DNA of 64,000 nt from Bdellovibrionales bacterium RIFOXYA1_FULL_36_14 (GTDB lineage: Bacteria; Bdellovibrionota; Bacteriovoracia; Bacteriovoracales; Bacteriovoracaceae). A program made the translations under genes and the position numbers. Positions 1,047 through 28,299 of this stretch are shown piece after piece. Positions within the stretch are counted from its first letter, which is position 1. Each line of letters opens with the position of its first letter. The notes under the pieces are model-generated. The model worked only from the letters and a program-made list of their open reading frames with translations. It did not search any database and had not been told where the DNA came from. The stretch covers positions 34,734 to 98,733 of the forward strand of contig MEPW01000007.1 of the NCBI GenBank assembly GCA_001769975.1, given 5' to 3'.

Positions 1047-2111
1047 TTAGATTTTACTACCATCCATCCTACGTTCTACTATAGAGGTGGCGTTTCTTAA
1101 AGCCTCTAGATTTTCTTGCGCAGAAGAAGAATTTAGGTGAACTTCTAAAAGCTGTTCTGTCGTTCTTTTTTGAAGTCCATATGAATAAAATTTGTCGTAG
1201 TAATCTAATAATTTTATACAGGCACTATTGATATCATCATTTTTTATTAAAGTAATAATGTCCAGATGAGTCTGTCCACCCAATTTCATTTTAATTGAAT
1301 CGCAAGCATTAATTAACAAATTTTTATCGGTGCTTTTGTAATCTTTAAGAAGCTGATTTACTCTGACTTCGTTGGGTACATTGATACAAATCACTGGGGC
1401 ACTTTTCATCTGATTATAAAGCGGTTGGGGAATATGTACATCCCCCACTTTTAAACTTTCATCTTCTATCAAGACGATTTTATCAAAATCAAATTTCTTC
1501 CATACAGAGTAAATATTATTTCCAAATTGTTCATTGGTAGGCTGCGGATGTTCATTGATATGTCCAAAGGCAGAGCCTTTATGATTGGCAATTTTTTCCA
1601 AATCTAGGATCTGCAATCCACACTCCTCAAGCTTATGAAGATATTGAGTTTTCCCACTTCCCGTCAATCCTCCTAAAATAATTATTTTACATTTTTGATT
1701 GAAACCATCCTGAATAATTTTTTTTATTTGCTTATAACCGCCACTAATTTTCGAAGCATTGAGCCCTGCCATATTTAAAAGCCAAACAAAGCTTTCACTG
1801 CGCATTCCTCCTCGAAAACAATAAACATAAATATCCTGCACCTTTTTTGATTTTGCTATATTGCTTGCTTCATCAACAAAACGACTCATTTTAGGGCCGA
1901 CAAATTCCAGTCCCTTTTTTACCGCTTCATCCTTTCCGGTTTGTTTGTAGAGTGTGCCGATGTCTTCACGCTCTTTATCAGAAAAAAGGGGAATATTAAA
2001 TGCCTCTACCAAATGACCTTTTGCAAATTCTATCGGTGATCTCACATCAATAATAACATGATTTTCGCCATTGATTTCATTGTAAGATATTTCTTTAGTT
2101 AAATTTATCAT
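1047..2111 (-). CDS. selU: tRNA 2-selenouridine synthase (rhodanese domain plus P-loop)
   Basis: N-terminal rhodanese-like domain with the active-site loop YCFRGGMRS, followed by the Walker A motif GGLTGSGKT. Its start overlaps the selD stop by 1 nt (TAATG). Confidence 0.8.
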   Translation of the reverse strand: MINLTKEISYNEINGENHVIIDVRSPIEFAKGHLVEAFNIPLFSDKEREDIGTLYKQTGKDEAVKKGLEFVGPKMSRFVDEASNIAKSKKVQDIYVYCFRGGMRSESFVWLLNMAGLNASKISGGYKQIKKIIQDGFNQKCKIIILGGLTGSGKTQYLHKLEECGLQILDLEKIANHKGSAFGHINEHPQPTNEQFGNNIYSVWKKFDFDKIVLIEDESLKVGDVHIPQPLYNQMKSAPVICINVPNEVRVNQLLKDYKSTDKNLLINACDSIKMKLGGQTHLDIITLIKNDDINSACIKLLDYYDKFYSYGLQKRTTEQLLEVHLNSSSAQENLEALRNATSIVERRMDGSKI

Positions 2112-3157
2112 TAAACAAACTTGATGGAAATTTTACGGTTGATATTTTTAATTGACCTACCAACAATTTTCGCCTCCGTCATGCCTTTTTTGTGTAAATC
2201 TTTAAGCACCATCGCTTGCTTCTTTTCTGGTACACTCATTAAAATCCCCCCTGAGGTCTGAGGGTCAAGCACTAATGTCTTATAAACATCTTCCAGCTTT
2301 TCACTGAAAGTAATATTTTGACTGCAATATTTAAAGTTTTTTTCCAACGAACATGGTTTATATTTTTCTTTGGCAATCTTAAAAACCCCCTCGATCAAAG
2401 GAAGCGATTGAGTATCAATCTCAAAACTTACTTTACTCCCTCTGGCAAGTTCCGCCAGGTGCCCAGCAAATCCAAATCCAGTAACATCAGTACCAGCAAC
2501 GATATCATATTTATTCATAACCTCCGCGGCTTTGTTATTAAGTGCTTTCATATAATTTAACGTTTTTTCATAAATTTTCTTATTAACTTTTTTATGTTTA
2601 TGGGCATTGATAATCTGATTGGTTCCCAGAGGTTTAGTTAAAATCAACACTTCACCTGGTTTTGCATTAGTATTAGTTACAATTTTTTTAGGATGAACCA
2701 ATCCGGTAACCGAAAGACCAAAAACGGGAACTTCGTTTTCAATAGAATGTCCTCCCGATAATACAATGCCGGCTTCTTTGGCTTTGTCGTTGGCTCCCAT
2801 AAGAATTTCTTTTAATACTGAAGCATCCAGTTTTGAGATGGGAAATAAGACAATATTTAAAGCAGAGATCGCTTTCCCTCCCATAGCATAGATGTCACTT
2901 AGAGCATTGGCTGCAGCGATCTGTCCAAATTCATAAGGATCAGAACATAGTGGTGGAAAAAAATCAGTTGTTTGAATAATAGCTACATCTTTATTTATTT
3001 TCCACACCGAGGCATCATCGGCGGTTTCACTGCCTACTAATAAATTTTTATGCGTGCCAAAAGGAATATCTTTTAAGATGGATTCCAATACAAAAGCCGG
3101 TATTTTGCTGGCACAACCGCCATTGATTACAAAGTCTAATAAATTAATCTTTGCCAT
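2111..3157 (-). CDS. selD: Selenide, water dikinase (selenophosphate synthetase), Cys type
   Basis: N-terminal catalytic loop NGGCASKIP, with Cys codon TGT at 3115..3113 and Lys three residues later. PurM/AIR-synthase-like body (DDASVW, TTDFF, GGHS). 348 aa. Confidence 0.85.
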   Translation of the reverse strand: MAKINLLDFVINGGCASKIPAFVLESILKDIPFGTHKNLLVGSETADDASVWKINKDVAIIQTTDFFPPLCSDPYEFGQIAAANALSDIYAMGGKAISALNIVLFPISKLDASVLKEILMGANDKAKEAGIVLSGGHSIENEVPVFGLSVTGLVHPKKIVTNTNAKPGEVLILTKPLGTNQIINAHKHKKVNKKIYEKTLNYMKALNNKAAEVMNKYDIVAGTDVTGFGFAGHLAELARGSKVSFEIDTQSLPLIEGVFKIAKEKYKPCSLEKNFKYCSQNITFSEKLEDVYKTLVLDPQTSGGILMSVPEKKQAMVLKDLHKKGMTEAKIVGRSIKNINRKISIKFV

Positions 3158-5094: not shown

Positions 5095-5856
5095 TCAAAA
5101 AAAGAATTTGGGGATTACTTCTTTTAATATTAAACCAATTTGTTCTTTAACCTTTTCGTGAGAAAAGCTGCCATATTCCTCGTAATCGTTTTTAGTTAGG
5201 ATTTGATCAAATATCATTTTCTTACTTTGCACTTTGGCTTCAGTGGTGGACACTGATTCAAGTTTTTTAACTGAAAAATGATAATTAACGATCAAGTTAT
5301 CTTTATCCTTTTTCATTTGCAAAACCAGTCCTTCAACACTGGTCATTTCTCTAGATTTGGGTGGAGAAAGTTTAATTTCAACCATCATATCCTTGCTAAA
5401 TTTTGTTTGTTTAATTTGAAAACGGTGAAAATTGACAAAGACTTCCAAAAAAAATTTCAAAATAGGGGCCATCGCTACGGTTAGTTGAAGCTGTCCGCAT
5501 TCAAATGGATTCCGACTATTTCCATAAACAATATATAAACTCTGTTGGGTATCCGTAATGGGACAATCCTCTTTAAGCAAAAAATTCCATTTCATTGATT
5601 TTTGTTCCCCGGCCTTTAATGAGATCTTGTCATTTACATTAAAAACATCGACTTGAGTAAACCCTTTATCTTCTTTTTGATTAATTTTTTTAAATATACC
5701 ACTTTCAAGACTTACTTGGAGTAAAGAAAGCGTCAGGGAGGACGCACCATGATTTTTGACAATAAAATCTCCTTTGATTGGATCACCTTGCAAATAGATT
5801 TCCTTGTCAGTCACAATTTTAAATTCCAAAGGAGCTGAAAACTTTGTACCTATCAT
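5095..5856 (-). CDS. Hypothetical protein (beta-sandwich, arrestin/SpoOM-like impression only)
   Basis: 253-aa ORF with clean coding appearance. The pattern IYLQGDPIKGDFIVKNHG is reminiscent of arrestin-N-like folds. No catalytic motif recognised. Confidence 0.45.
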   Translation of the reverse strand: MIGTKFSAPLEFKIVTDKEIYLQGDPIKGDFIVKNHGASSLTLSLLQVSLESGIFKKINQKEDKGFTQVDVFNVNDKISLKAGEQKSMKWNFLLKEDCPITDTQQSLYIVYGNSRNPFECGQLQLTVAMAPILKFFLEVFVNFHRFQIKQTKFSKDMMVEIKLSPPKSREMTSVEGLVLQMKKDKDNLIVNYHFSVKKLESVSTTEAKVQSKKMIFDQILTKNDYEEYGSFSHEKVKEQIGLILKEVIPKFFF

Positions 5857-9881: not shown

Positions 9882-12800
9882 TTATTGCGCGCCGGTAATC
9901 AAAAGATTGTCAATCCAGGCTCCATCATGACCATCGTCTGCTGAATAATCCTTTTTATAAACCCATTTTAACTCATGAAGACCGGCCGGAACATTAAAGA
10001 ACTCTTCAGACCAAGCTATTTCCCCACTCCAATTACCCGCTTTATCCCCATCCACGTAAAATATCAATTGATCATATTTTGCTTCAGAAGAGACCATCTT
10101 GAAAAAGGAAACACTTCCATCATGAATAAAATTCTTGGTAAGAATTAATTCACTCACACCACTTGCGCCAAGATCCTTTCCACTTCTTGCAGAATATCTT
10201 CCACTGAATGGAAATTCTTCAGTAATCTCCCACGGTTTCTTTCCCGCAAAACGCCACGGATTAGAAGCAAAACTTCCTGTTTCAAAAGTTTCGGTCAACC
10301 CTACGTTAATCAGGCTTTCCATAATTGTTTCAATGTCATCACTGTTAATTTTACATCGAAAACGCGCAATTGTTCCCAGTAAAATATCTTCACCAAATTG
10401 AACTTCGAAATCTATCTGAGCTTCTTGACCAGGAGCTAAACCCGAGATACTGCTTTGGGCATTACCTATATGCACGTTTAATTCTTCTAATTCCTCTAAA
10501 TGATAATAGATTAGTGATGAAGCCACATGCCCGATATTTTTTACAATATATCTAAAAGTTCTAGTTTCACCAGGTTTAATTTCTCCATCTCCCAACAACT
10601 GATTACCAAGAGTAAACTTGGGAGCATTGACTTTTAACGTAAAAGTACTTCGATATTCCTTGCTGGTTTGATCAAGCATCACTAATTGAAATGGAATTAA
10701 ACTTTGATCAATAATACCTTTTTCAAATCTTATCCTAAATCCTTTTTTCAAGGTCACTTTTTGACCACCATTTATTTGAGCTACTTGCTCTTCACTATCC
10801 AGTATAGCGTCGACCGCAGAAGAATCGGTTTCAAGTTTAGCGCGAAGATTTTTTGACATTCCATTGCCAACGTTTTCCAATTCTATCGTTAAATAGATTG
10901 TTTCTCCAACGTCCGCCTGTGAATTATTGCTATCTTCCACCGCATGTTTACTTAAAACAATAAAGGGTCCATTTGGAGGAATCACTTGAACCATCTTTTT
11001 AATCGTTTGAAAATTAAAGCCACTCACCGTTATGTAGGCATCCCCTACTTCCAATTGATTTGCAATTTCAACCCGACCATTTTCATCAGTAATTCCAACA
11101 TAATTTTTATTATTTTGATAAAGCGAAACAATCACATTTTTAACAGGTCCCGATGAATCGCTTACCACTGTTTCAAAAAGAGTACCCATTAAAAGAGTTT
11201 CATTACTGATAGTTAATTTTTTGGGTGTATCACTTCTTACTTGCAAACTAGCATCTCCAAAAATAGTCCAAGTTTTTATAGTATCTAAATCAGGTCCAGT
11301 TGATGATTCAGCATACATTAAACTGGCTGCGTTCATTGTCAAAGATCCAAAAGTACTTCGGTTATTTTGGGTGTTTGTACCATCCCCAGGGTTTTGCTCG
11401 TAATTATAACCGCCAATCAGTAGATCATTAAAATAATCTTGACCTCTCATAGGTGGTGCCCATGGTTGGTTGATAGTTGACATCCAAGCTGCCACGGCTC
11501 CGCCATTTTCTTTTTTAAGCCAAGCTTCGGCAAAAGAATCTCCACCGCTACTATGAAATTCTCCGTTTATACAAGCCACGGAAACAATGAAAGGAAGTTT
11601 TTTACCGTTATTAAGTTGAACAATATCAGAATTCTTAAATCCACTGGTGGCCCAACTAGTCTTACTTCCATGACCAGTATAATTGATAAGGCCAACCCCC
11701 GCATTTAGCCAGTCAGCGACATTGCGTGAATTAACATTTAAAGTGGCATATCCTTCTTCAACTTTCACGTAAGTATTTTTAAGCAGCTTATTGTCTCGAA
11801 TGACTCGCATATGCTGTTCATCGGTTTCTCGATCATCTCCCTGTGAGCCGCCTTCACTGGAAGCTATTCCTACGGCATTTTTATACCAAGTATCACTGGC
11901 ATCAGCATCTCTTTCGTAGGTAATAGTTTTATTGACCTGAGTTTGAATCTGCTCTGGAGTATTGCCTGAAAATCTTCCAACAATTAAATCCGCATAATTA
12001 TCATCCCCTTTTACACATCCAAGCATAGGATCCATAGGTGCTTGAGATGGACCTAAATCAGATTTTAGATCTTCCCAATCCCCAAAAAGCTGAACATACA
12101 AAATATCCTTATCATTTTCGTAGGCCTGTTTAATTACACTTTTAACGTTGGTGCCTTTCACGACCTCTTTTTCTAAAACGGCTAAACCTTTCATTCGCTT
12201 CCATTCAACGTAAGGAGCTACCACCTGTTTATAATGAGCAGGATAGATCACTAGTAATTTTCCATAATCTTTTAAAGGGATATTACTAAGCGATGATGGT
12301 CTTTGATAATTAATAAGCAGAGTTGAATAAATATCTTCCATTTCCGGAATCATTCGTCCACATGTTCCAATCAATGGGTTTACGGGAACTCCGCGACCTT
12401 TTAAAACTCGCACTTCAATTTTTTTATAAACTCTTAAAATTTTTCTTTTGGCATTATATTGAAATGGATAAACATAGATATTGGTTCCTCTTACATCCCT
12501 TAAGACGAAAGGCTTAGAACTTTCGGCAATAGTTTTGGGATACCATTCATCCGTAATTGACTTATTATCTTCAACGTAAGGAAAATCTTCCGGATTTTGA
12601 TTTCTGAGAATAACTCCTTTGGACGGTAACAGCGGATGAGCTAATTGAATGTCCTCATACTCAGTGTCACCAACTTCTGCCAAAACGCTGTCTTTGGGTT
12701 TTAGCTGAATACCTGCATAGATAAATGGTAGTTCGGCAAATCCTTTTTTATTAGTAGTAACATTGCCACCGTAAATTATTTTTGACCAGATACTACTATC

Positions 12801-12971
12801 TGCTTCAACTTCCGAAATGGAATAATCATCTAACTCAAATTTAAGTTGGTAAATTAGATTATTTTTTCCTTCCTCAAATTTGACTTGAAATCCTTTCGCA
12901 GCAAAGGCTTGATTGAATACAAAAATAATTAACAATAAAAAATAAAGAAACAACGACTTCATCTTAACCAT
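9882..12971 (-). CDS. Secreted gingipain-like cysteine peptidase (family C25) with C-terminal beta-sandwich domains
   Basis: Signal peptide present. Catalytic contexts are NYTGHGS (His434, codon 11672..11670) and VSVACINGEF (Cys467, codon 11573..11571). The 33-residue His-Cys spacing matches what I recall for RgpB (His211/Cys244). The tail ends ...GAWIDNLLITGAQ, a jelly-roll-like module. Confidence 0.75.
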   Translation of the reverse strand: MVKMKSLFLYFLLLIIFVFNQAFAAKGFQVKFEEGKNNLIYQLKFELDDYSISEVEADSSIWSKIIYGGNVTTNKKGFAELPFIYAGIQLKPKDSVLAEVGDTEYEDIQLAHPLLPSKGVILRNQNPEDFPYVEDNKSITDEWYPKTIAESSKPFVLRDVRGTNIYVYPFQYNAKRKILRVYKKIEVRVLKGRGVPVNPLIGTCGRMIPEMEDIYSTLLINYQRPSSLSNIPLKDYGKLLVIYPAHYKQVVAPYVEWKRMKGLAVLEKEVVKGTNVKSVIKQAYENDKDILYVQLFGDWEDLKSDLGPSQAPMDPMLGCVKGDDNYADLIVGRFSGNTPEQIQTQVNKTITYERDADASDTWYKNAVGIASSEGGSQGDDRETDEQHMRVIRDNKLLKNTYVKVEEGYATLNVNSRNVADWLNAGVGLINYTGHGSKTSWATSGFKNSDIVQLNNGKKLPFIVSVACINGEFHSSGGDSFAEAWLKKENGGAVAAWMSTINQPWAPPMRGQDYFNDLLIGGYNYEQNPGDGTNTQNNRSTFGSLTMNAASLMYAESSTGPDLDTIKTWTIFGDASLQVRSDTPKKLTISNETLLMGTLFETVVSDSSGPVKNVIVSLYQNNKNYVGITDENGRVEIANQLEVGDAYITVSGFNFQTIKKMVQVIPPNGPFIVLSKHAVEDSNNSQADVGETIYLTIELENVGNGMSKNLRAKLETDSSAVDAILDSEEQVAQINGGQKVTLKKGFRIRFEKGIIDQSLIPFQLVMLDQTSKEYRSTFTLKVNAPKFTLGNQLLGDGEIKPGETRTFRYIVKNIGHVASSLIYYHLEELEELNVHIGNAQSSISGLAPGQEAQIDFEVQFGEDILLGTIARFRCKINSDDIETIMESLINVGLTETFETGSFASNPWRFAGKKPWEITEEFPFSGRYSARSGKDLGASGVSELILTKNFIHDGSVSFFKMVSSEAKYDQLIFYVDGDKAGNWSGEIAWSEEFFNVPAGLHELKWVYKKDYSADDGHDGAWIDNLLITGAQ

Positions 12972-14923: not shown

Positions 14924-14952
14924 TCGACAAATGTATGTAAAAGGCTTAGATT
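14924..14952 (+). promoter_or_regulatory. Candidate sigma-70 promoter for tRNA-Gln (and possibly gatED)
   Basis: TCGACA (14924-14929), a 17-nt spacer, then TAGATT (14947-14952). It lies about 20 nt upstream of the mature tRNA 5' end. Confidence 0.4.
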
Positions 14953-14972
14953 TCATAGAGTCAGTTATTTGT

Positions 14973-15047
14973 TGGGGTGTCGACAAGTGGTAAGTCATCA
15001 GATTTTGATTCTGCCATTCGTAGGTTCGAGTCCTACCACCCCAACCA
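14973..15047 (+). tRNA. tRNA-Gln (anticodon UUG), CCA encoded
   Basis: 75-nt cloverleaf folded by hand. Acceptor stem UGGGGUG/CACCCCA (U1:A72), discriminator A and encoded CCA. Anticodon loop UUUUGAU. T-arm GUAGG-UUCGAGU-CCUAC. Very similar in layout to E. coli tRNA-Gln. Confidence 0.9.
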
Positions 15048-15080
15048 CTCATCAAACCAATCACTTTTTGAAGGTAGATC

Positions 15081-17060
15081 ATGAAAAAGGTGGATCCAAC
15101 TAGCAACTATTCCCTTTCCCTAAAAAACACCGGTTATAAGGAGAGAAAAAAATGCTCTCAAGCTGACTACGATAAATTAGGACTTATCTCCGGTTTGGAA
15201 ATACATCAGCAATTAAAAACCAAGCATAAACTTTTTTGCCAATGCCCATCTGGTATTTTTCAAACTGCAGACGATTACGATGCAGAAATCGTCCGACATA
15301 TGAGACCGACGCTTTCTGAACTTGGCGAATATGATGGAACAGCTTTGATGGAATTTAAAACCAGAAAAGAAATCACCTATCGAATCAAGGATGGCACCGC
15401 TTGCACCTACGACATCGACGATACCCCTCCATTCCCCATCAATCAGGAAGCGGTAGAGCATGCGCTTGAATACGCCATACTACTAGGACTCAATATTGTG
15501 GGAGAGCTCCACGTTGCTAGAAAACAATATTTGGATGGATCAATTCCAACTGGTTTTCAGCGCACTGGTATTATTGGCATTGAAGGCGTATTTCCTATAT
15601 CAAATAAAAAAATTCGCATCATCCAATTATCCATTGAGGAAGATTCCTGCAGAGAAGTAAGTGATATCGGTCATAAACGAATTTACCGTACAGATAGACT
15701 TGGTACACCACTGGTCGAAACGGTCACCTACCCCGACATGACCCATCCAGATGAAGTCCAAGAAGCTGCTCATTATTTACGATATATGGCAAGAGCCACT
15801 TCTAAAATGCGAACTGGTAGTGGCGCTGCAAGACAAGATGTCAATGTAAGTATTACCGGCGGAACCAGAATAGAAATAAAAGGGGTGGCATCCATATCTA
15901 AAATTCCTGACCTGGTTCATATAGAAGCATTTAGACAAAAATCTCTCTTAGTGATTAAAGATATTTTAAATGAAAGAATTGCCGATATCAAAAATTATAA
16001 AATTACTGCCAGAGTTTTAAGATCTGCTAAAAAATATAAATTGGATGCTATTCAAAGGGCCATAAAAGAGCACCAGGAAGTCATGATCGTTAACCTTCCT
16101 CATTTACAAGGTATCCTATCTCACTTTAATCAACCAGATATCACTTTTGCTGATGAATTTAGACATCGACTAAAAGTTATTGCCTGCCTAGAACACCCCA
16201 ATATGTGTCACTCAGAGGAAACTTTAGATTTTATTACTAATAAAGATTGGGATGAAATTCGAGATTACGTTCAAGCCGGACCAAACGATGCACAGATTAT
16301 TTTTTGGGGACCCAAAGAAGATATAAAAACTGCACTCGATACCATTCAAGAGCGCATCGTACTGGCCTATAACGGGGTCCCAAACGAAACCAGAAAGGCG
16401 CTTACAAACGGAATCACCATTTTTGAAAGAGTACTACCCGGTGCTAATAGAATGTATCCTGATACCGACTCTGCTCCCATACCACTGGCAACTAAACGAG
16501 TAGAAGAAATTAAAAAAAGAATACCTCAGACTATAGATAAAAGATTTAAACAATTAACTGATTGGAAAATTCCTCACGATGCCTGGAGTTTTTTATTAAG
16601 ATATAACCTGATACCAATAGTTGAAAATATTATTAATAAAACTGATATTCCTCCCAAATTTGTGGCAACGACCTTTGCTCACCAATTAAAAAATATATTA
16701 GGTAAAAATAAAAAATTTCCCAGCATTTCCGACTTTAAAAAGGTTCAATTTTTATTTGAATTTATTCATGATAAAGAATTGCATTACGAAATTGCCTGGG
16801 ACATGCTCAAGATTGCTTATATTCATCCTAAAATGGATTTCAACTCCATTTTAATCGTCATGGAACACCAGTCTGCTACCTTAGATAAAATTTTAGGTCA
16901 TATTCCCATTTTAAATGATCTTTTCACAAATATCTGCAAAACTAAGCGGGAACACGCGCGAATGGATTGGATCATGGGGCAAATTAGAAAGGCCAGCATT
17001 GGTAACATTCCAATGAAAAAGCTAAATTCCCAGGTGGAAAACGTTATAAAATCGAGGTAG
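15081..17060 (+). CDS. gatE: Glutamyl-tRNA(Gln) amidotransferase subunit E (archaeal-type, GatB paralogue)
   Basis: 659 aa. Contains GLEIHQQLKTKHKLFCQCPS and RKQYLDGSIPTGFQRTG, where GatB has the RKNYFYPD-PK-YQISQ type segment. Also DRLGTPLVE, ARQDVNVSI, a large mid-protein insertion and a YqeY-like tail. Confidence 0.85.
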   Translation: MKKVDPTSNYSLSLKNTGYKERKKCSQADYDKLGLISGLEIHQQLKTKHKLFCQCPSGIFQTADDYDAEIVRHMRPTLSELGEYDGTALMEFKTRKEITYRIKDGTACTYDIDDTPPFPINQEAVEHALEYAILLGLNIVGELHVARKQYLDGSIPTGFQRTGIIGIEGVFPISNKKIRIIQLSIEEDSCREVSDIGHKRIYRTDRLGTPLVETVTYPDMTHPDEVQEAAHYLRYMARATSKMRTGSGAARQDVNVSITGGTRIEIKGVASISKIPDLVHIEAFRQKSLLVIKDILNERIADIKNYKITARVLRSAKKYKLDAIQRAIKEHQEVMIVNLPHLQGILSHFNQPDITFADEFRHRLKVIACLEHPNMCHSEETLDFITNKDWDEIRDYVQAGPNDAQIIFWGPKEDIKTALDTIQERIVLAYNGVPNETRKALTNGITIFERVLPGANRMYPDTDSAPIPLATKRVEEIKKRIPQTIDKRFKQLTDWKIPHDAWSFLLRYNLIPIVENIINKTDIPPKFVATTFAHQLKNILGKNKKFPSISDFKKVQFLFEFIHDKELHYEIAWDMLKIAYIHPKMDFNSILIVMEHQSATLDKILGHIPILNDLFTNICKTKREHARMDWIMGQIRKASIGNIPMKKLNSQVENVIKSR

Positions 17061-18449
17061 GTGATGCTGGATCTATTCAAAGGTTACAAAGGAGAAGCTC
17101 TCCAAATTTTAAAAGATTTCAAATCCAGAGTTTGGAGTGATGCCATTGTTGAAACTAATAACGGTACTTTTAAAGGTATTATTTTACCCAGAAGTGAAAG
17201 CGACGATGACCAACATGTGGTAGTCAAACTTATCACTGGATACAATGTTGGCATAAAAGTAAACACTATAATCAGTATCAAAGAAATAGGTTACAAGGAA
17301 GCTCATTATAAAATACCAGAACAAGATTTCCCTTTTACCGAAGGTCGTCCCAGAGTAAAACTTCTCGGAACTGGTGGAACTATAGCCTCTAGGCTCGATT
17401 ATCGAACAGGCGCCGTTATTCCCGCTTTTTCTCCTGGTGAGCTCTATGGTGCAGTCCCTGAATTGGCTGACATTTGCAATTTAGAAACTGAAAAAATCTT
17501 TGCCGTCTTTAGTGAAAACATGGGTAGTGAACAATATATGAAACTGGCCAAGGCCATAGGCAAAGAAATTGAAAGAGGTATAGATGGAATTGTCATAGGA
17601 CACGGTACAGATACTATGCACCATACAGCGGCTGCTTTATCCTTTATGATTCAAAATCCACCCGTCCCAATTGTCATGGTTGGTTCACAACGTTCATCAG
17701 ACCGCCCATCTTCTGATGCGGCATTAAACCTCATGCACGCTACCAGAACTGCAGCCTACAGCGATATCGCCGAAGTAATGGTGTGTATGTTTGGACCAAC
17801 TTCAGATGAATATGGTCTTTTACATCAAGGAACCAGAGTCAGAAAAATGCACTCTTCATATCGCTCAACTTTTAGAACACTTGGCGATGTTCCCCTTGCC
17901 ACAGTTACAAGAGAAAAAATAACTCCCATCAAAAAAGAATACAATAAAAGGCGTCAATCCCCTGAAGGCATGAAAGTTGTCCCAGCTTGGGAAGACAAGG
18001 TCAGTCTGCTTTATTACTATCCAGACATGAAACCAGACATGATTGATTCTCTCACCGATAACGGATACGTTGGATGCATTATCGCAGGTACTGGACTTGG
18101 ACATGTTAACAAGCCTCTTTATAAGGCCATTGATCGCGCTTACAAAGCTGGTATGCATATCTATATGACTGTGCAAACCCTGTGGGGTTATACTCACATG
18201 AGTGTTTATGAAACGGGTAGAGATTTAATGGCCCTGGGAATAATTCCTCTGGGCAACATGCTTCCAGAAGTTGCCTACGTAAAATTAGCTTGGGCCCTCG
18301 GCCAAAGTCATGACAAAGAAGAAGTTAAAAAAATCATGCTTCATCCTTACTGCGCAGAAATAACCAAGCGAGAACCCTATAACGGCTACCTGGTATTCCA
18401 AGGCGGAATTCCAGAGGTAGAAGAATTTTTAAAGAAGATTCATAAATAG
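17061..18449 (+). CDS. gatD: Glutamyl-tRNA(Gln) amidotransferase subunit D (asparaginase-like glutaminase)
   Basis: Extra N-terminal domain of about 90 aa, then the asparaginase core: LGTGGTIASRLDYRTGAV, GHGTDTMHHTAAALSFM, GSQRSSDRPSSDA, SDIAEVMVCM and GTRVRKMHSS. Starts (GTG 17061 or ATG 17064) immediately after the gatE stop. Confidence 0.85.
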   Translation: MMLDLFKGYKGEALQILKDFKSRVWSDAIVETNNGTFKGIILPRSESDDDQHVVVKLITGYNVGIKVNTIISIKEIGYKEAHYKIPEQDFPFTEGRPRVKLLGTGGTIASRLDYRTGAVIPAFSPGELYGAVPELADICNLETEKIFAVFSENMGSEQYMKLAKAIGKEIERGIDGIVIGHGTDTMHHTAAALSFMIQNPPVPIVMVGSQRSSDRPSSDAALNLMHATRTAAYSDIAEVMVCMFGPTSDEYGLLHQGTRVRKMHSSYRSTFRTLGDVPLATVTREKITPIKKEYNKRRQSPEGMKVVPAWEDKVSLLYYYPDMKPDMIDSLTDNGYVGCIIAGTGLGHVNKPLYKAIDRAYKAGMHIYMTVQTLWGYTHMSVYETGRDLMALGIIPLGNMLPEVAYVKLAWALGQSHDKEEVKKIMLHPYCAEITKREPYNGYLVFQGGIPEVEEFLKKIHK

Positions 18450-22177: not shown

Positions 22178-22753
22178 TTACAAGATAGCTGGTTCATCGA
22201 CGACATCAAAATATCCCCGTGGATGCGCACACGCCAAACAGACTTGGGGTGCCTGAGTGCCCAAATGTATAAAACCGCATTTTCGACAGCGCCATCTGGA
22301 TTTTTTTGACCTTTTATAAAACTCACCTTTTTGCAATTTTCGTCTGATCGCAACGAATCGTTCATAATGGTATTTATCGGCTTCAATGATTGCATCTAGG
22401 ATCTGAGAGATTGTATCTAATCCTTCACTTAGAGCGGTTTTAGAATAAACGGGATAAATTTTATCCCAATCTTTTTTTTCTTCTTGAATTGATAAATTTA
22501 AATTTTCAATTGTGTTTCCAATATATCCTGCGGGAAAACATTCTGTAATTTCCAGATTCCCACCTGGAAGAAGTTTAAAACATCTTTTAGCAAGAATACG
22601 TTCATATTCAGCCGTTTGTTCAAAAACTTGTTCAATTATAGGATGACCTTCTTCCTTGGCAACTTTAGCATAAAAACTATATCGATTTCTGGCCTGTGAT
22701 TTACTCGTAAAAGATTTAAGTAAATTAATTTCAGTAAGACTCCCCTTTAACAT
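22178..22753 (-). CDS. rbr: Rubrerythrin (diiron four-helix bundle plus C-terminal rubredoxin-like CxxC...CxxC)
   Basis: LKGSLTEINLLKSFTSKSQARNRYSFYA is a typical N-terminus. C-terminal WRCRKCGF...CLACAHP. Start at ATG 22753 with GGAGG upstream; the track start 22819 is an upstream GTG. Confidence 0.85.
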   Translation of the reverse strand: MLKGSLTEINLLKSFTSKSQARNRYSFYAKVAKEEGHPIIEQVFEQTAEYERILAKRCFKLLPGGNLEITECFPAGYIGNTIENLNLSIQEEKKDWDKIYPVYSKTALSEGLDTISQILDAIIEADKYHYERFVAIRRKLQKGEFYKRSKKSRWRCRKCGFIHLGTQAPQVCLACAHPRGYFDVVDEPAIL

Positions 22754-22868
22754 ATCGCCTCCATAAAAATATATCAAAAGATTATTAAAAATGCGTAATA
22801 AAAGCAATAGACCTGGCACTGTTAGATATACGAAAACATAAACGATACTTAATCAGGGAAGGAAGATT

Positions 22869-23381
22869 ATGAATAAGCGTGAATTTACTAACGTAAGTGA
22901 TAATGCGTCAGAGGTTTCTAGTCAGTATTTAAGTAAGAATGTCGACTTTTATGACATTATGGATTTTGCCATTTTAAAAGAGGAAGAGGCTTACAATGTT
23001 CTTCTGGGACTATGCAAAAAAATGGAAAATCCCGAAGCTAAAAAGGCATTGAATCGCTTAGCTTCAGAGGAATTGGAACATATAAAAGTGCTCCAAAAAC
23101 TAATTGCGGGGGGCCCAGGGAATTTTAAAGCTACGAAAGTTACATTTGAAAAATATCAAGATCAGGAATTTAGTGATGTATTAAAAGAAGACGCCACGGT
23201 TAAAGAAGTGCTGGAGTTTACTATCGCTAAAGAGAAAGACTCCTATCTATTTTATAATGACATGGCCAGAGCATATAAGGACAAAGAAACCAAGGACACC
23301 TTGATAAATCTGGCTAATTTAGAAAAAGCCCATCAAACCAGATTAGAGAAAATATATTATCGTTATTTTCAACCTAACTAG
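22869..23381 (+). CDS. Rubrerythrin/ferritin-like diiron protein without a rubredoxin domain
   Basis: Two E...ExxH half-sites (EEEAY...SEELEHI and KEKDSY...LEKAHQ) in a 170-aa helical protein. Divergent from rbr. Confidence 0.65.
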   Translation: MNKREFTNVSDNASEVSSQYLSKNVDFYDIMDFAILKEEEAYNVLLGLCKKMENPEAKKALNRLASEELEHIKVLQKLIAGGPGNFKATKVTFEKYQDQEFSDVLKEDATVKEVLEFTIAKEKDSYLFYNDMARAYKDKETKDTLINLANLEKAHQTRLEKIYYRYFQPN

Positions 23382-23395
23382 GAATTATATAAACA

Positions 23396-24658
23396 TCAAT
23401 TGCGTCGATCAATTACGTTCCTCAATTTGCCGGTACGTCGATTTCTCACCAAGTCCTCGTACTCGCAAATTTGGATTTGAATATCACCAATTAGCCCTAG
23501 CTCAACGCTTTCTTGATACATCTTTTTTTCTTTATTAAAAAGTTGATAGAGCAGTTTTATATCACGGCTTAATAACTTAATATTGCCATAATCAGAGGCA
23601 ATTCTCCAAATCAGGAAATCCTTTTGCTTATCATGTTCAATAATAAGCTGGAATCCCATAATCAGATTTTTGTGTGAATAAGATTTTAAAATATTTAAAA
23701 AATCATCTCTATTAACGGTAACTGGTCCTACTCTAGCCCCCACTTCTGATCGACCTTGTAGCAAAAACTTTTCACCCACACTGCTCCATTGGGCCAGATC
23801 TCCCACAGGATATCTTATTATCGGCATTAAAGTTCTCTCTAAATTGGTATAAACTAACTTTCCGACAATGCCTGTTTTAGTAATTGGTTCATTGGTATTT
23901 TCATCCAGTATTTCCATGATTGAATATTGATTAAAACAAACATGTTCTCCAGGTAGACAGGTTTTATCCACAAAGCCAAGATGTCCACCATCAACACTAG
24001 CATATCCAATAGATGAAATAATGACCCCGGGAAAACTATCCTCTAAGACAGCTCTTTGATCTTGGTATAGTCCTTCTCCACCATATAAAATCTTTTTTAC
24101 TGGTAGTTTTAAATTTTTACTACGTACCAAACTTGCCAGATGCATAAATGAAGTGGGCACTCCAGCCAATACATTAATATTCAACTCTTGTAGCACTTCC
24201 AATAAACTAGAATCTGGACATTTCCCTGTTATCGGAAAATGGATAACGGGAGTTTTTGCATATTCCAGAGATTTCATAATAAAGATAAATGAGGCATAAA
24301 GTTCCCCACTATAGAACAAATTAGCAACTCTGTCGCCATGCTTGAGATTACATTGATCCAGCCCTTCTCCAAATATTTTCGTAAACATTTCCCACTCTGT
24401 TTTGGTAAAAAATGAAAACTTAGGATTCCCTGAAGTGCCACCACTTTTAAGCACAATCCCATTATCAATTTCTCCAGTTAGTAACTGATTATTTTCCAAG
24501 GAATTAGCAATCCAGAATTTTTCTTGATCAACGATGGGAAGATCTTGTAACTCAAATTTCTCAATATCTATGTCATAGTATATTTCGCGATAGAAGGGAG
24601 ATTTTTCTCTGACAAATTTAACAAGGTCCTTTAATTTTTCATGTGCATTGGTTTTCAT
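23396..24658 (-). CDS. Adenylate-forming enzyme, phenylacetate-CoA ligase / F390-synthetase (CapK-like) family
   Basis: 420 aa with the P-loop-like motif LKSGGTSGNPKFSFF and overall PaaK-like length. The start overlaps the stop of the upstream fusion gene by 1 nt (TAATG). Confidence 0.65.
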   Translation of the reverse strand: MKTNAHEKLKDLVKFVREKSPFYREIYYDIDIEKFELQDLPIVDQEKFWIANSLENNQLLTGEIDNGIVLKSGGTSGNPKFSFFTKTEWEMFTKIFGEGLDQCNLKHGDRVANLFYSGELYASFIFIMKSLEYAKTPVIHFPITGKCPDSSLLEVLQELNINVLAGVPTSFMHLASLVRSKNLKLPVKKILYGGEGLYQDQRAVLEDSFPGVIISSIGYASVDGGHLGFVDKTCLPGEHVCFNQYSIMEILDENTNEPITKTGIVGKLVYTNLERTLMPIIRYPVGDLAQWSSVGEKFLLQGRSEVGARVGPVTVNRDDFLNILKSYSHKNLIMGFQLIIEHDKQKDFLIWRIASDYGNIKLLSRDIKLLYQLFNKEKKMYQESVELGLIGDIQIQICEYEDLVRNRRTGKLRNVIDRRN

Positions 24659-27129
24659 TATTCTTTTCTCTGGTCTATAACCCGAATTAGCTTGCCGCTT
24701 GACGGGGTTTTTAAAAAATCATTTGCGTCTATTTTTTTTATTTCTAAAATCAACGCATGTTCACTTTTAACCACTTCTAATAAATCGTGATAATTCTTCA
24801 AGATTATTTCCTCTACATCACTTGAAATAATTTTACTCTCATCTAATTTTACTATCAAATGATCTAAACGTTCATTTTTCACTATCTCTATTTGTAACTG
24901 CCCACTGTACGCACACTTTTCACTCAAGATGTTTTCAATAATTTGAAAATTTATAAAAGTACCACCTGCCTTAAAGACATCCCCCAGGCGCCCTTTTAAC
25001 TCGAACATCTTCGCCTTTCTCCCGCAAGCACAAACCCCAGGAATCCATCTACCGACGTCACCAATCTCATAACGATTGATAACTACTGATTCCCGATCAG
25101 GTGTAGTAAAAACGAGCCTACCAATTTCATTGTCCTCAACCGGTTCATCACGAATGAGCTTTAAAATTTCCAAATGATGAATACTGTCGTGTAAATGATG
25201 AACACTTCCCAATGTATGAGGGCACTGATATCCAAGCGGACCTGCATCAACACTTCCATAACTGGCTGACTTAATCAAGCGAATATTAAATTCTTTTTGT
25301 ACCCACTCTTTTTGTTGATTAGTAAAGTGCTCACCCCCATAAAATATTTTTTTTATTCCATTATATTTTTTAAATCGTTCCCTATTGTAATCCAATAATT
25401 GCATTAAATAAGAAGTCATCCCTATTAGTGTATCTATGTTATTTGAGATGATGGTTTCTCCTACAAATTCAAAATTGGGCCACGCCCCCATAGAATATTG
25501 GATGGCCTGCATTTTTTCCAAGACTGTAAAGAAACTGATCATGCCCCCATATAGTCCGCCACCAAAAAAAAGATTTATAACTTTATCACGTCGGGGATCA
25601 AGTCCCGAAGCCACTAGTCCCTCGCTAGCTGCTTCCATCAACAGATTATAATCTGCATAGTTAAAAGAAGAAAGGGCGGTTTTGCCTGAGCTACCGCCAC
25701 TTTTAAAAAATAATTTTGCATATTGAAGGTCATGACTTTGTTTTTGAAAATCATCCTTAGTCATTATTTTTGAGTTGGTGGATTGATTAAAATAATTGGA
25801 AAAATTTATTCTAGACCATCCGTCTAATCCTTCCATGACTGAGCTAACATTTTTAGTAAACGCATGAAGCGGATAAATCCCGTCATGTGCTTCACCTTCG
25901 TAAGTATCCAGCATTTGCCCCACTGGTTTTATCCGGGTAGCTCCAGTTTTTAATAAGACATCTAACACATCAGAAGAATCTTTGAGATTGCCTGCAAATC
26001 CAATCGTCTGTAAATGATTTCTATATTTAAATAATTCAGACAAAATGTGATCCTTTAATAACGGTTTGATCCAGATAGTTCTATTTAATGGGGAGGTTTT
26101 TAGCGCTGAATCGTTTTCGACATAGATACGAAATTTTTTATCCGGTTCTTCCAGTACCAGCGAATCTATCATGATCTCATCAAGTTTAACCAATTCGGTA
26201 ACATTAGTAATTTCTGCCTGGATATCTGCTGGAAGTGATTCTGCTTTTTTGGAGTCAGATTCACTTTTTAAATACTGGTAAAACTCCTTAGCAAATTGCT
26301 TAACCTCTTCGTAGGAATCAGTCTCTAAATAAACGCATTGGGGAGAAGCACATGCTTGTTGTTCCAACCTCACACAATCTTTAGCTAAGTTGCTTAAAGT
26401 TTTCTTATCATGGAAATGAAACTTCGTTATATAAGCAAAGGAAATTTTATGTCCCCAGGTAATCACTTTACATTGGGCAGGTACCATATTTTTTATGTCC
26501 ATGACTGCCGGGTCCCCTCCCCAGACAGAAACCCCGTTAGCGACCGATGCCAACTGAGTCATTATTTCTTTTTGTTTGGAATTAAGTCTTAAAACTATAA
26601 GATGATTCTTGATAAGTCCCGTATCATCCAGATCACCTAATATTTTTAATGCTTTTAAAGAAAAGCTCGAATCTTTACTGGAAACTTTAAGTATATTCAC
26701 ATTACCACTTAACAATCCCTCCAGTGCTGCCAAAAATGCCAGTACATTGGAATTTGAGGGTGTAATGTGCAAGATAATTCCCAGTGGACGTCGACCTTCA
26801 AAAACACAAGCGGTGTCCATATTTTTCTTCAGATCCCAAAAATCGTACCCGCCTAATTCTTTTTTTATTTTATTTTTAAGATTACTCATTTTTAAAAAAT
26901 TTCTTAAAAAATCGATTTCATCTTTCAAGTCTTCCTTTGATAAATGAGCATCGTTTAAATATTCATATAATTGGTCGTCAGTTAACGCTTGATTGAATTT
27001 CTCCAAGGTGTGTGTTACTAACTTTACTGGTAAATTTTGCTTAAGCGAATTTGACATTTCGCAATCTAGTTTTTCAAGATAATTCATTAAACTTAAATCA
27101 TCAATTTCAAGACCTTTCCATAAATGCAT
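24658..27129 (-). CDS. Fusion protein: LuxC-like acyl-CoA reductase (N) plus PaaK/F390-synthetase-like adenylate-forming domain (C)
   Basis: N-terminal part (about aa 1-440): HITPSNSNVLAFLAALEGLLSGNVNILKVSSKD and the catalytic-Cys context EQQACASPQC (Cys260). C-terminal part (from about aa 460): FFKSGGSSGKTALSSF plus a PaaK-like body. 823 aa in total. Confidence 0.65.
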   Translation of the reverse strand: MHLWKGLEIDDLSLMNYLEKLDCEMSNSLKQNLPVKLVTHTLEKFNQALTDDQLYEYLNDAHLSKEDLKDEIDFLRNFLKMSNLKNKIKKELGGYDFWDLKKNMDTACVFEGRRPLGIILHITPSNSNVLAFLAALEGLLSGNVNILKVSSKDSSFSLKALKILGDLDDTGLIKNHLIVLRLNSKQKEIMTQLASVANGVSVWGGDPAVMDIKNMVPAQCKVITWGHKISFAYITKFHFHDKKTLSNLAKDCVRLEQQACASPQCVYLETDSYEEVKQFAKEFYQYLKSESDSKKAESLPADIQAEITNVTELVKLDEIMIDSLVLEEPDKKFRIYVENDSALKTSPLNRTIWIKPLLKDHILSELFKYRNHLQTIGFAGNLKDSSDVLDVLLKTGATRIKPVGQMLDTYEGEAHDGIYPLHAFTKNVSSVMEGLDGWSRINFSNYFNQSTNSKIMTKDDFQKQSHDLQYAKLFFKSGGSSGKTALSSFNYADYNLLMEAASEGLVASGLDPRRDKVINLFFGGGLYGGMISFFTVLEKMQAIQYSMGAWPNFEFVGETIISNNIDTLIGMTSYLMQLLDYNRERFKKYNGIKKIFYGGEHFTNQQKEWVQKEFNIRLIKSASYGSVDAGPLGYQCPHTLGSVHHLHDSIHHLEILKLIRDEPVEDNEIGRLVFTTPDRESVVINRYEIGDVGRWIPGVCACGRKAKMFELKGRLGDVFKAGGTFINFQIIENILSEKCAYSGQLQIEIVKNERLDHLIVKLDESKIISSDVEEIILKNYHDLLEVVKSEHALILEIKKIDANDFLKTPSSGKLIRVIDQRKE

Positions 27130-27138
27130 AATTATTCC

Positions 27139-28299
27139 TTAAAAATTATCCAAAAGCTCAGAAGCTTTCATGGCACAACTTTTGTTTTTAGCTGTTCCCG
27201 CTCTACCCACAATTTCAAACCAGGGAGTCGATAATTCACAATCACAATCACTCCCAGCATGTAAAATAGCCAAATCTCCCATCAATACAGAGTTAGCAGG
27301 CACTGAAGTTATATAGGGTGAAATAAAATTTAAATAACCTACTTGATCAAAGCCTAGTGGCTCTAGATTTTTCACGTCTCTGATAATTATTTGAGACCAC
27401 ACGGGCACATGAAAATGGTGACATTTGCATTCGACATAAGGGATACAGTGCTCCACCGAACCAAATCCGTCCCGGAGTCTTTCATCAGGGATATTTAAGT
27501 ATTCATTGACCAAATTATAAAAAACCTCTTTCTCAATCAATTGATCTTGATGGCCTTTCCAGCCTCCGCCTAAAAATACCAGTGAATCCTTATGTAATTT
27601 GATTGGTGGCATTTTTATTTTTTTCATATGTTCAAGCGTGAAATATAAAAAAGCAGGAAATCCAAAAATTCTCACAGGTAATTTTGCTTCTTCATATTTT
27701 TTCAAAGCCTCAATACAACCAAACAAATCAAACTTATGTTCTCCACCACCAATATTTTTTAGCGCATATGATACTTCTTTGATAGGAGCATATTTGCATA
27801 AAAAATTATCTGTGTAAGATGTACCTAAGTTAAAATTTTTTTCGGGTTCATACGTATACAAAAGATAGTTACATTTTTGTTCAGGTGTAATCCACCCATA
27901 ATAATTAAAAATCAGATCAACCATCCTTTGCGCCGATTTGAGTGACCACTCATCAAAAAATATTTGAGATTTCTGGCCAGTGGTTCCAGAAGAGGTTAGA
28001 TGCAAATAAACGTCTTTTTTATCAATCGAAAGTACTTCATATTTTTTAAAAAAATTTGCAAATATAAAAGGTATTTTATGAATATCCAGAATTGATTCAA
28101 GCATGTGCAAAGAAAATTGTTTTTTAATTAAAAGCTTATGGTAAAAAGTTGATTGTTGGTCATGCCAAGCAATGACTTCTTTGAGGGCATCTACAAAAAG
28201 TGCTTCTGTTTCTTGATTAACACCATAAGGATTTTCCAGCAGGCAAAATGCCTGAACTTTCCCCAGTAGTTCCTGATTAAATATCTCAAGTTTTTCCAA
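27139..28299 (-). CDS. LuxE-like acyl-protein synthetase (adenylate-forming)
   Basis: 386 aa with the motif HLTSSGTTGQKSQIFFD. Size and position directly upstream of a LuxC-like reductase fit the LuxE family. Confidence 0.6.
   Translation of the reverse strand: MEKLEIFNQELLGKVQAFCLLENPYGVNQETEALFVDALKEVIAWHDQQSTFYHKLLIKKQFSLHMLESILDIHKIPFIFANFFKKYEVLSIDKKDVYLHLTSSGTTGQKSQIFFDEWSLKSAQRMVDLIFNYYGWITPEQKCNYLLYTYEPEKNFNLGTSYTDNFLCKYAPIKEVSYALKNIGGGEHKFDLFGCIEALKKYEEAKLPVRIFGFPAFLYFTLEHMKKIKMPPIKLHKDSLVFLGGGWKGHQDQLIEKEVFYNLVNEYLNIPDERLRDGFGSVEHCIPYVECKCHHFHVPVWSQIIIRDVKNLEPLGFDQVGYLNFISPYITSVPANSVLMGDLAILHAGSDCDCELSTPWFEIVGRAGTAKNKSCAMKASELLDNF

Follow-up and report, generated by a model that had tools for sequence, protein, structure and literature searches.

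Are amidotransferase genes of the archaeal GatDE type, found directly behind a tRNA-Gln gene on a bacterial contig, archaeal newcomers or residents, and does the tRNA belong with them? This question is raised by a 64 kb stretch of contig MEPW01000007.1 of the predatory-type Bdellovibrionales bacterium RIFOXYA1_FULL_36_14 (called the window below: the whole stretch of DNA that was analysed, 64,000 nucleotides [nt] in length), in which a tRNA-Gln(UUG) gene is followed by gatE and gatD. GatDE is called exclusively archaeal in reviews up to 2022 (PMC2330236, PMC8762117, PMC9499178), and an earlier note on this DNA, made from the sequence alone, was right in that the accessible literature holds the enzyme to be confined to archaea. 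We find instead that the window pair is part of a large family of bacterial GatDE already annotated in databases, and that the tRNA linkage alone is unusual. We consider it likely that the two genes encode a functional heterodimeric Glu-tRNA(Gln) amidotransferase, a GatDE of bacterial lineage, in one expression unit with its tRNA substrate.

Gene order and junctions

The module comprises the following features, given in window coordinates.

14924-14952, plus strand: promoter-like element (TCGACA, 17 nt, TAGATT), approximately 20 nt upstream of the tRNA gene; 9/12 in a consensus scan
14973-15047, plus strand: tRNA-Gln gene, anticodon UUG, found by ARAGORN; 59.4 bits to Rfam RF00005 (gathering score 29)
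15048-15080, plus strand: tRNA-gatE spacer of 33 nt, with a Shine-Dalgarno-like AAGG(T)AG 6 nt ahead of the gatE ATG (read from the sequence)
15081-17060, plus strand: gatE, open reading frame (ORF) of 659 amino acids (aa) with stop codon TAG; passes the NCBIfam GatE equivalogs
17061-18449, plus strand: gatD, ORF of 462 aa from GTG 17061; passes the NCBIfam GatD equivalogs and carries the Pfam domains

The sequence of the gatE-gatD junction is GAGGTAGGTGATG. The earlier note had gatD begin on the codon that follows the gatE stop. The adjacency of the two genes is as it described, but the true start of gatD is probably ATG 17064 (461 aa) and not GTG 17061, because the identical database protein is 461 aa in length and a Shine-Dalgarno-like GAGG stands 7 nt ahead of that ATG. 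Translation of gatD is probably coupled to that of gatE.

Identity of GatE and GatD

Judged by profile scores, motifs and predicted fold, the window ORFs are a genuine GatE-GatD pair, not GatB followed by an ordinary asparaginase. The 659-aa product scores 477.1 bits against NCBIfam NF003107 (cutoff 456) and 398.5 bits against TIGR00134 (cutoff 319.55). All GatB models fall far below their cutoffs, the best of them reaching 141.9 bits against a cutoff of 338, which bears out the assignment of this ORF to GatE rather than GatB that had been made from motifs. Pfam GatB_N, a profile of 277 positions, is matched over residues 37-474, interrupted by an insertion of approximately 160 residues. The protein aligns continuously to 2d6f_C and 1zq1_C over residues 29-539, and the GatE-specific, AspRS/GAD-like insertion domain is present; some GatE homologues match PF02938 GAD. 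This insertion is predicted to bar AspRS and, as a consequence, the synthesis of Asn-tRNA (PMC2330236).

The best sequence matches of the window GatE in the PDB are the GatE proteins of M. thermautotrophicus (2D6F) and P. abyssi (1ZQ1). Its AlphaFold model (pLDDT 74, pTM 0.70) likewise matches 2d6f_D and 1zq1_C best (E of approximately 1e-34 to 1e-35, TM 0.67-0.72), with GatB chains ranking behind (E of approximately 1e-15 to 1e-18). Weak fold matches to AspRS fit the insertion domain. The Mg2+ ligands are intact: H42, E186 and E213 of the window protein correspond to H15, E157 and E184 of M. thermautotrophicus, and all three are invariant in a 126-sequence GatE alignment, bar two sequences that are gapped at the His column. 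Mutation of these residues inactivates M. thermautotrophicus GatDE; they are needed for both kinase and transamidase activity (PMC2330236). A C-terminal YqeY-like tail is present, to judge from the alignment of the NCBIfam GatE model up to position 625 of 630, and the tails of bacterial and archaeal GatE are homologous (hhalign probability 99.8%, E = 6e-30, 156 columns). In the model, residues 500-659 form confidently predicted helices, and Pfam GatB_Yqey gave no match on the window GatE. In the archaeal enzyme, the tail touches the D-loop of the tRNA.

The second ORF is GatD, as the earlier note had proposed: its scores are 496.3 bits for NF003217 (cutoff 310) and 482.1 bits for TIGR02153 (cutoff 324), and it has the Pfam domains GatD_N (PF18195), Asparaginase (PF00710) and Asparaginase_C (PF17763), the last two forming the type I asparaginase core. 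All the motifs quoted for it are present: TGGTIAS at residue 104, HGTDTM at 181, GSQRSSDRPSSDA at 208 and VRKMH at 260. TGGTIAS, HGTDTM and VRKMH align with the corresponding motifs of 1zq1_A and 2d6f_A (E of approximately 1e-110 for the protein as a whole), and both the Thr nucleophile and the Thr-Lys-Asp triad are conserved.

The linked tRNA-Gln

The tRNA-Gln(UUG) is the sole tRNA that ARAGORN finds in the window. Its acceptor stem, read from the sequence, starts with U1:A72, G2-C71 and G3-C70, the discriminator base is A73, and CCA is encoded at the 3' end. On these features the tRNA is of the bacterial type, not the archaeal A1:U72 type; the A1:U72 first pair of the archaeal GatDE substrate is absent. 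Glutamine is encoded in the window ORFs by 521 CAA and 164 CAG codons; with CAA making up 76% of the total, the tRNA reads the dominant Gln codon.

Five loci of this lineage were available for comparison: the window, a Bacteriovoracaceae metagenome-assembled genome (MAG; GCA_030634085.1, locus L002) and three metagenomic loci (L085-L087) with a GatE 92-95% identical. In all five, a tRNA-Gln(UUG) gene lies 33-45 nt upstream of gatE. By contrast, no tRNA-Gln was found next to gatED in any of 80 FCB loci (each with at least 298 nt of upstream sequence) or of 11 archaeal-type loci. The tRNA-Gln linkage is lineage-specific and is the distinctive feature of this locus. The tRNAs of L085-L087 are identical to that of the window; in L002, a T-stem pair has changed in compensatory fashion (U-A to C-G), and G73 stands in place of the A73 of the window.

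The sequence upstream of the tRNA is conserved as well. TCGACA is invariant in the alignment of the five loci, and the hexamer TA(G/A)ATT is kept 17 nt downstream of it in every one, including L002, in which GatE is 65% identical; these hexamers may serve as a promoter. In the tRNA-gatE spacer of the window, a terminator-like site was looked for and none was found, nor does the spacer RNA form a stable fold or hairpin (z = 0.5). At this length, it is too short for a separate promoter outside the tRNA gene. These results agree with the earlier note, which had placed the tRNA 33 nt ahead of gatE with no terminator between and had proposed one transcription unit. With the upstream hexamers kept in 5/5 loci and a spacer of 33-45 nt, co-transcription of tRNA-Gln with gatE-gatD would be the most economical reading.

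One archaeal-type locus (L093) has a tRNA-Glu(CUC) gene at 5780-5855, approximately 3.2 kb downstream of gatE, which is probably coincidental.

Proposed function

A mechanism can be modelled on the characterised archaeal enzyme. A non-discriminating GluRS would load glutamate onto tRNA-Gln. GatE would bind the resulting Glu-tRNA(Gln) and phosphorylate the glutamate side chain with Mg2+ and ATP, GatD would free ammonia from Gln or Asn, and the ammonia would pass through an internal tunnel to GatE to give Gln-tRNA(Gln). Transamidation of Glu-tRNA(Gln) to Gln-tRNA(Gln) is thus the activity predicted for the window pair. The promoter-like element, tRNA-Gln(UUG), gatE and gatD would most likely form one transcript, from which RNase P and 3' processing would free the tRNA, with translation of gatD coupled to that of gatE.

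Several points weigh against this reading. The promoter-like match is weak alone: at 9/12, it is one of 16 such sites in the scan, where 15.8 are expected. The GatE tree (described below) leaves the window pair sister to or inside the FCB clade (40% bootstrap in a neighbour-joining tree with a midpoint root). The archaeal enzyme recognises A1:U72 and it is the bacterial GatCAB that reads U1:A72 on tRNA-Gln (PMC2330236), whereas the tRNA linked here has U1:A72; tRNA recognition by the window GatDE, as predicted from the tRNA sequence, must therefore differ from that of the archaeal enzyme. No activity or expression data were found for any bacterial GatDE. Finally, the cultured relative Bacteriovorax marinus is reported to have GlnRS and AsnRS and no GatCAB (PMC4206432), and the canonical role of GatDE would be redundant if GlnRS were present here as well.

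One alternative is that the host keeps GlnRS as B. marinus does and that its GatDE is supplementary or repurposed. It could then act as a back-up or condition-specific route to Gln-tRNA(Gln), in clearing mischarged Glu-tRNA(Gln), or in a non-translational tRNA-dependent amidation. In favour of this are the reported gene content of B. marinus and the statement that the two routes to Gln-tRNA(Gln) are not known to occur together in any bacterium (PMC4206432). A handful of Bacteriovoracaceae-type sequences among the thousands of matches listed, where close Rho homologues are abundant, also fits the pattern of an accessory gain. Even so, we think a supplementary or repurposed GatDE unlikely: the catalytic and tRNA-binding domains are all intact and strongly conserved, the pair is joined to the tRNA-Gln of the main Gln codon, as a core translational role predicts, and no natural-product or cell-wall neighbour genes are conserved alongside. 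The neighbouring genes are silent on the remainder of the pathway: gltX, glnS and gatCAB are absent from the window ORFs scanned, and clustering of the ORFs of 82 gatED loci gave no conserved gltX, glnS or gatCAB neighbours, the clusters being gatE, gatD, antisense shadow ORFs and Bacteroidales envelope-gene synteny alone.

Residence of the module

The earlier note judged by eye that parts of gatE and gatD are richer in GC than their flanks. This impression is weak: the GC content is 0.413 in gatD (z = 2.2, second of 47 ORFs) and 0.377 in gatE (z = 0.8). In codon-usage distance, gatE ranks 25th and gatD third of the 47 ORFs, while the GC content of gatD at third codon positions (GC3) has z = 1.1. 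The excess in gatD sits at the first and second positions of codons, which determine the amino acid, a pattern shared with other conserved housekeeping genes, and it is no sign of foreign DNA.

Two insertion scenarios were rejected. One was a recent foreign insertion: by windowed GC, GC3 and leave-one-out codon-usage distance, gatE is ordinary and gatD mildly atypical, and an ameliorated composition fits an old residence at the site. The other was a tRNA-targeted genomic island. No second copy of the tRNA 3' end occurs in the window with three mismatches allowed, short repeats are at chance level only, and neither an integrase nor any other mobile-element family was matched among the ORFs scanned next to the module.

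Foreign DNA commonly inserts at the 3' ends of tRNA genes. The adjacency of tRNA and gatED might on this basis be a historical by-product of integration at a tRNA hot spot, with gatED transcribed independently. Two comparisons speak for such a history: the linkage is absent from the 80 FCB and 11 archaeal-type loci, and so is not required for GatDE function, and the gene directly upstream of the tRNA, as well as the downstream genes, differ between the window and L002. Nevertheless, we regard an accidental adjacency as improbable. The window has neither a repeat of the tRNA 3' end nor a mobile-element family beside the module, and the spacer of 33-45 nt has no terminator and no room for a promoter outside the tRNA gene. 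No match was obtained by tblastn with GatD in 72,556 plasmids or with GatE in 50,697 phages. The arrangement has also persisted though the flanking native genes have diverged to 48-54% identity. The two genes in question, upstream of the module, are syntenic in L002 at 54% and 48% identity (GatE, 65%; GatD, 82%), which places the module at this site in the common ancestor of both lineages. Most likely, gatED has been inherited vertically at the same chromosomal site since its acquisition.

Distribution of GatDE in bacteria

A scan of one genome per GTDB species found a GatE relative in at least 582 species-representative bacterial genomes, mostly of the FCB group. The loci examined were the best 80 of these; the window's own species is not among them. 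Most carry the label Bacteroidales or Bacteroidota. Some are labelled Ignavibacteria, Zixibacteria, Cloacimonadota, Lentimicrobiaceae, Aminicenantes or UBP2, and five Eubacteriales or Clostridia. A word-indexed database search gave at least 8000 scored candidates per subunit; among the matches listed, identity reaches 53-57% for the best relatives of GatE and 74-79% for those of GatD. In an exhaustive search of 50%-identity representatives, 3096 clusters were found at E <= 1e-3 (GatB included) and 576 at E <= 1e-30.

Many of these relatives are already named GatE or GatD by NCBI/JGI, in Bacteroidales, Bacteroidota, Zixibacteria, Cloacimonadota, TA06, Omnitrophota and a Bacteriovoracaceae MAG; Ignavibacteria, Aminicenantes and Deltaproteobacteria are also among the annotated holders. 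The novelty that the earlier note saw in a bacterial GatDE has to be given up. For the locus alone, what remains is a correct annotation: a Bacteriovoracaceae-like genome encodes a bacterial GatDE whose genes are, unusually, linked physically to tRNA-Gln. A full-text literature search, with subscription journals outside its scope, found no description of bacterial GatDE. The literature lags the databases here, and the clade appears to be unacknowledged in the searchable tRNA-synthetase literature. The mismatch is a broad one: a well-separated and strongly conserved GatDE clade is present in hundreds of bacterial species, mainly of the FCB group, and beyond it in deltaproteobacterial-type MAGs, CSSED10-310 and the Bdellovibrionota lineage of the window.

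The window proteins resemble these bacterial homologues far more than the archaeal ones. GatE shares 52-65% identity with its bacterial counterparts and approximately 36-38% at most with the nearest archaeal ones. For GatD, identity is 67-82% across bacterial phyla (67-79%, mostly 72-78%, to the FCB-type phyla Cloacimonadota, Zixibacteria, Ignavibacteria and Bacteroidales) and 44-47% to the two structurally characterised archaeal GatDs. Gene order is shared as well: of the 76 FCB loci with enough downstream sequence, 69 have a gatD behind gatE on that strand. The conservation of GatD and of the gene order points to selection on the pair.

Seven FCB loci (L016, L023, L035, L058, L069, L070 and L079) have a full-length gatE and no gatD within approximately 6 kb on either side; gatD may sit elsewhere in these genomes or be missing. 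In L045 and L056, one gene lies between gatE and gatD.

Phylogeny and origin

The genes around the module indicate a bacterial host. Rho (680 bits), PrfA, PrmC, MurA, Lnt, SelD and MnmH all pass their cutoffs, and MltG/YceG, RuvX and a KdsD-like protein with SIS and CBS domains are also encoded in the window. The earlier note had called the neighbours rho, lnt, murA, mltG, prfA/prmC and kdsD bacterial; the last is the SIS+CBS gene, and the description stands. The named best matches of Rho, at 84-87% identity, are from Bacteriovoracaceae, Halobacteriovoraceae, Bdellovibrionales, Bdellovibrio, Bacteriovorax, Halobacteriovorax and Oligoflexia, with one further best match in a MAG labelled just Pseudomonadota. 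By these matches, the host is a member of the Bdellovibrionota, near Bacteriovoracaceae, and the locus is bacterial.

A neighbour-joining tree of 126 full-length GatE sequences, midpoint-rooted, separates two superclades at a bipartition with 100% bootstrap. The archaeal superclade holds both structurally characterised archaeal proteins, and among its named members Heimdallarchaeota, Thorarchaeota and an unclassified archaeon are basal. The bacterial superclade holds the window protein and its Bacteriovoracaceae sister (bootstrap 100%), the FCB clade and some 30 more clusters of about 40% identity, in which every named member (two Deltaproteobacteria and candidate division CSSED10-310) is bacterial. 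The window GatE, rather than standing among archaeal GatE as a strict archaeal signature would, falls in an all-bacterial superclade (bootstrap 1.00).

Three contexts sampled from the bacterial superclade are clearly bacterial, with the order gatE then gatD. The pair is found beside Lnt, Mur ligases, MraZ and RsmH in the first, beside a sigma-54 activator with RND/OEP efflux genes in the second, and beside a hybrid histidine kinase in the third. In the Heimdallarchaeota locus, gatD and gatE are divergent and lie near a TFIIB-type zinc ribbon and an S13-S4-S11 ribosomal cluster.

In a distance tree of GatD with the two archaeal structures as its root, the window and L002 fall within the FCB radiation, with Zixibacteria, Ignavibacteria and Cloacimonadota nearby and Aminicenantes and Bacteroidales outside this grouping. 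None of 200 bootstraps made the window and L002 the sister group of the remaining bacterial sequences. From this position and the Bdellovibrionota-like Rho we infer the direction and donor of the transfer, the donor being likely another bacterium and not an archaeon. Most likely, to judge from these trees, an ancestor of the Bacteriovoracaceae subclade acquired gatED laterally from an FCB-type bacterium. The inter-domain transfer considered in the earlier note finds no support here as a direct one, with the bacterial superclade standing apart from archaeal GatE and GatD lying within the FCB radiation.

The phyla are intermixed in the GatD tree. Near-identical GatD proteins are labelled Ignavibacteria (L005) and Zixibacteria (L006), and the GatD of a Bacteroidales sequence (P0190) falls among Cloacimonadota. 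Either gatED has been exchanged laterally among the FCB phyla, or some bins are mislabelled.

A transfer that came recently and directly out of an archaeon, or a chimeric assembly of archaeal and bacterial DNA, for which it may be said that the family was first defined in archaea and is called an archaeal signature by reviews, is extremely improbable in view of the same tRNA-gatE-gatD junction in five independent assemblies from different samples, the bacterial genes on both flanks, the higher identity of GatE to bacterial than to archaeal proteins (split bootstrap 1.00), the native-like codon usage and the bacterial-type tRNA.

A more far-reaching proposal is that GatDE, instead of being an archaeal invention that spread to bacteria, is an old monophyletic bacterial lineage, specific for U1:A72, and that in this Bacteriovoracaceae subclade it was captured with or beside the main tRNA-Gln as a self-contained Gln-tRNA(Gln) module, either replacing GlnRS or giving the first known two-route bacterium. 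We put this forward as a speculation that is considerably more likely to be wrong than right. An ancient bacterial clade, if true in an outgroup-rooted tree, would bear on the question whether both amidotransferases were present in the last universal common ancestor. A bacterial GatDE that must read a U1:A72 tRNA-Gln would be, if established, a natural experiment on tRNA recognition by amidotransferases. Because relatives are reported with GlnRS and without GatCAB, the lineage could also become a test case, if either is established, for the switch from GlnRS to the indirect pathway or for a coexistence of two routes that reportedly had not been seen in bacteria (PMC4206432).

Comparison with known systems

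The window pair shares its architecture with the archaeal GatDE of 2D6F and 1ZQ1, which are its best matches in the PDB in both sequence and fold. GatD consists of an N-terminal domain and a type I asparaginase core; GatE consists of a cradle, an AspRS-like insertion and helical and tail domains; and the Mg2+ ligands and the Thr and Thr-Asp/Lys motifs are conserved. The two differ in sequence, the window GatE being approximately 30-32% identical in a structure-based alignment and GatD 44-47%, and they fall in separate superclades. The bacterial genes are co-directional, gatE then gatD, unlike the divergent pair of the Heimdallarchaeota locus.

The N-terminus of GatE is also longer in bacteria: ahead of the catalytic His, the median length is 32.5 residues in the bacterial superclade and 15.5 in the archaeal one, and it is approximately 41 residues in the FCB clade and the window pair. 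In the stretch encoded at 15081-15160 of the window (residues 1-27), N9, G18 and Y19 are invariant, and the model has a confident helix at residues 6-17. This extended N-terminus may contact GatD or the tRNA.

The annotated bacterial GatE and GatD homologues belong to the same clade, with the same gatE-gatD operon and the identities given above (52-65% for GatE, 67-82% for GatD). The FCB representatives differ from the window in having no adjoining tRNA-Gln (0/80 loci), and the window host, a member of the Bdellovibrionota, lies outside the FCB group. GatCAB catalyses the same overall reaction, and GatE and GatB are paralogues with a common catalytic cradle (Pfam GatB_N; fold matches). The ammonia donor of GatCAB is the amidase GatA with GatC, in contrast to the asparaginase-type GatD here.

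Two further systems join tRNA genes to protein genes. In the thrU-tyrU-glyT-thrT-tufB operon of E. coli, tRNA genes stand ahead of a translation-factor gene with no terminator between, and the transcript is processed. The window module differs in that the downstream enzyme would act specifically on the co-encoded tRNA, and co-transcription is here a prediction. The pylTSBCD cassette is a transferable module of a tRNA gene and dedicated enzymes. It resembles the window module in linking a tRNA to the enzymes that set its cargo and in a patchy distribution that suggests lateral transfer. The tRNA of the window, unlike that of pylTSBCD, reads ordinary Gln codons without recoding, and there is no evidence that it moved with gatED.

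Other genes of the window

A second tRNA-related module of the window is the selD-mnmH pair (1047-3157, minus strand), encoding selenide, water dikinase and tRNA 2-selenouridine synthase; both pass their equivalog cutoffs. A 1029-aa protein with a C25-peptidase/PorU-like domain, resembling the sortase of type IX secretion, is encoded at 9882-12971 (minus strand) and is syntenic and 54% identical in the Bacteriovoracaceae MAG (L002, 1531-4611). Because type IX secretion is characteristic of Bacteroidota, the gene may be a further FCB-like one beside gatED.

Two divergent genes of the rubrerythrin family lie at 22178-23381, one of them with a rubredoxin-like C-terminal domain, and suggest an oxygen-sensitive or microaerophilic lifestyle. 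At 24658-28299 (minus strand), a gene for a LuxC-like acyl-CoA reductase (822 aa, with an extra C-terminal region) adjoins one for a LuxE-like acyl-protein synthetase; luxAB are not evident near them, and the pair may form a fatty-aldehyde or alcohol pathway. At 54138-56812 (plus strand), a FIST-domain sensor gene is followed by a histidine kinase gene with overlapping stop and start codons, probably forming a two-gene signalling unit.

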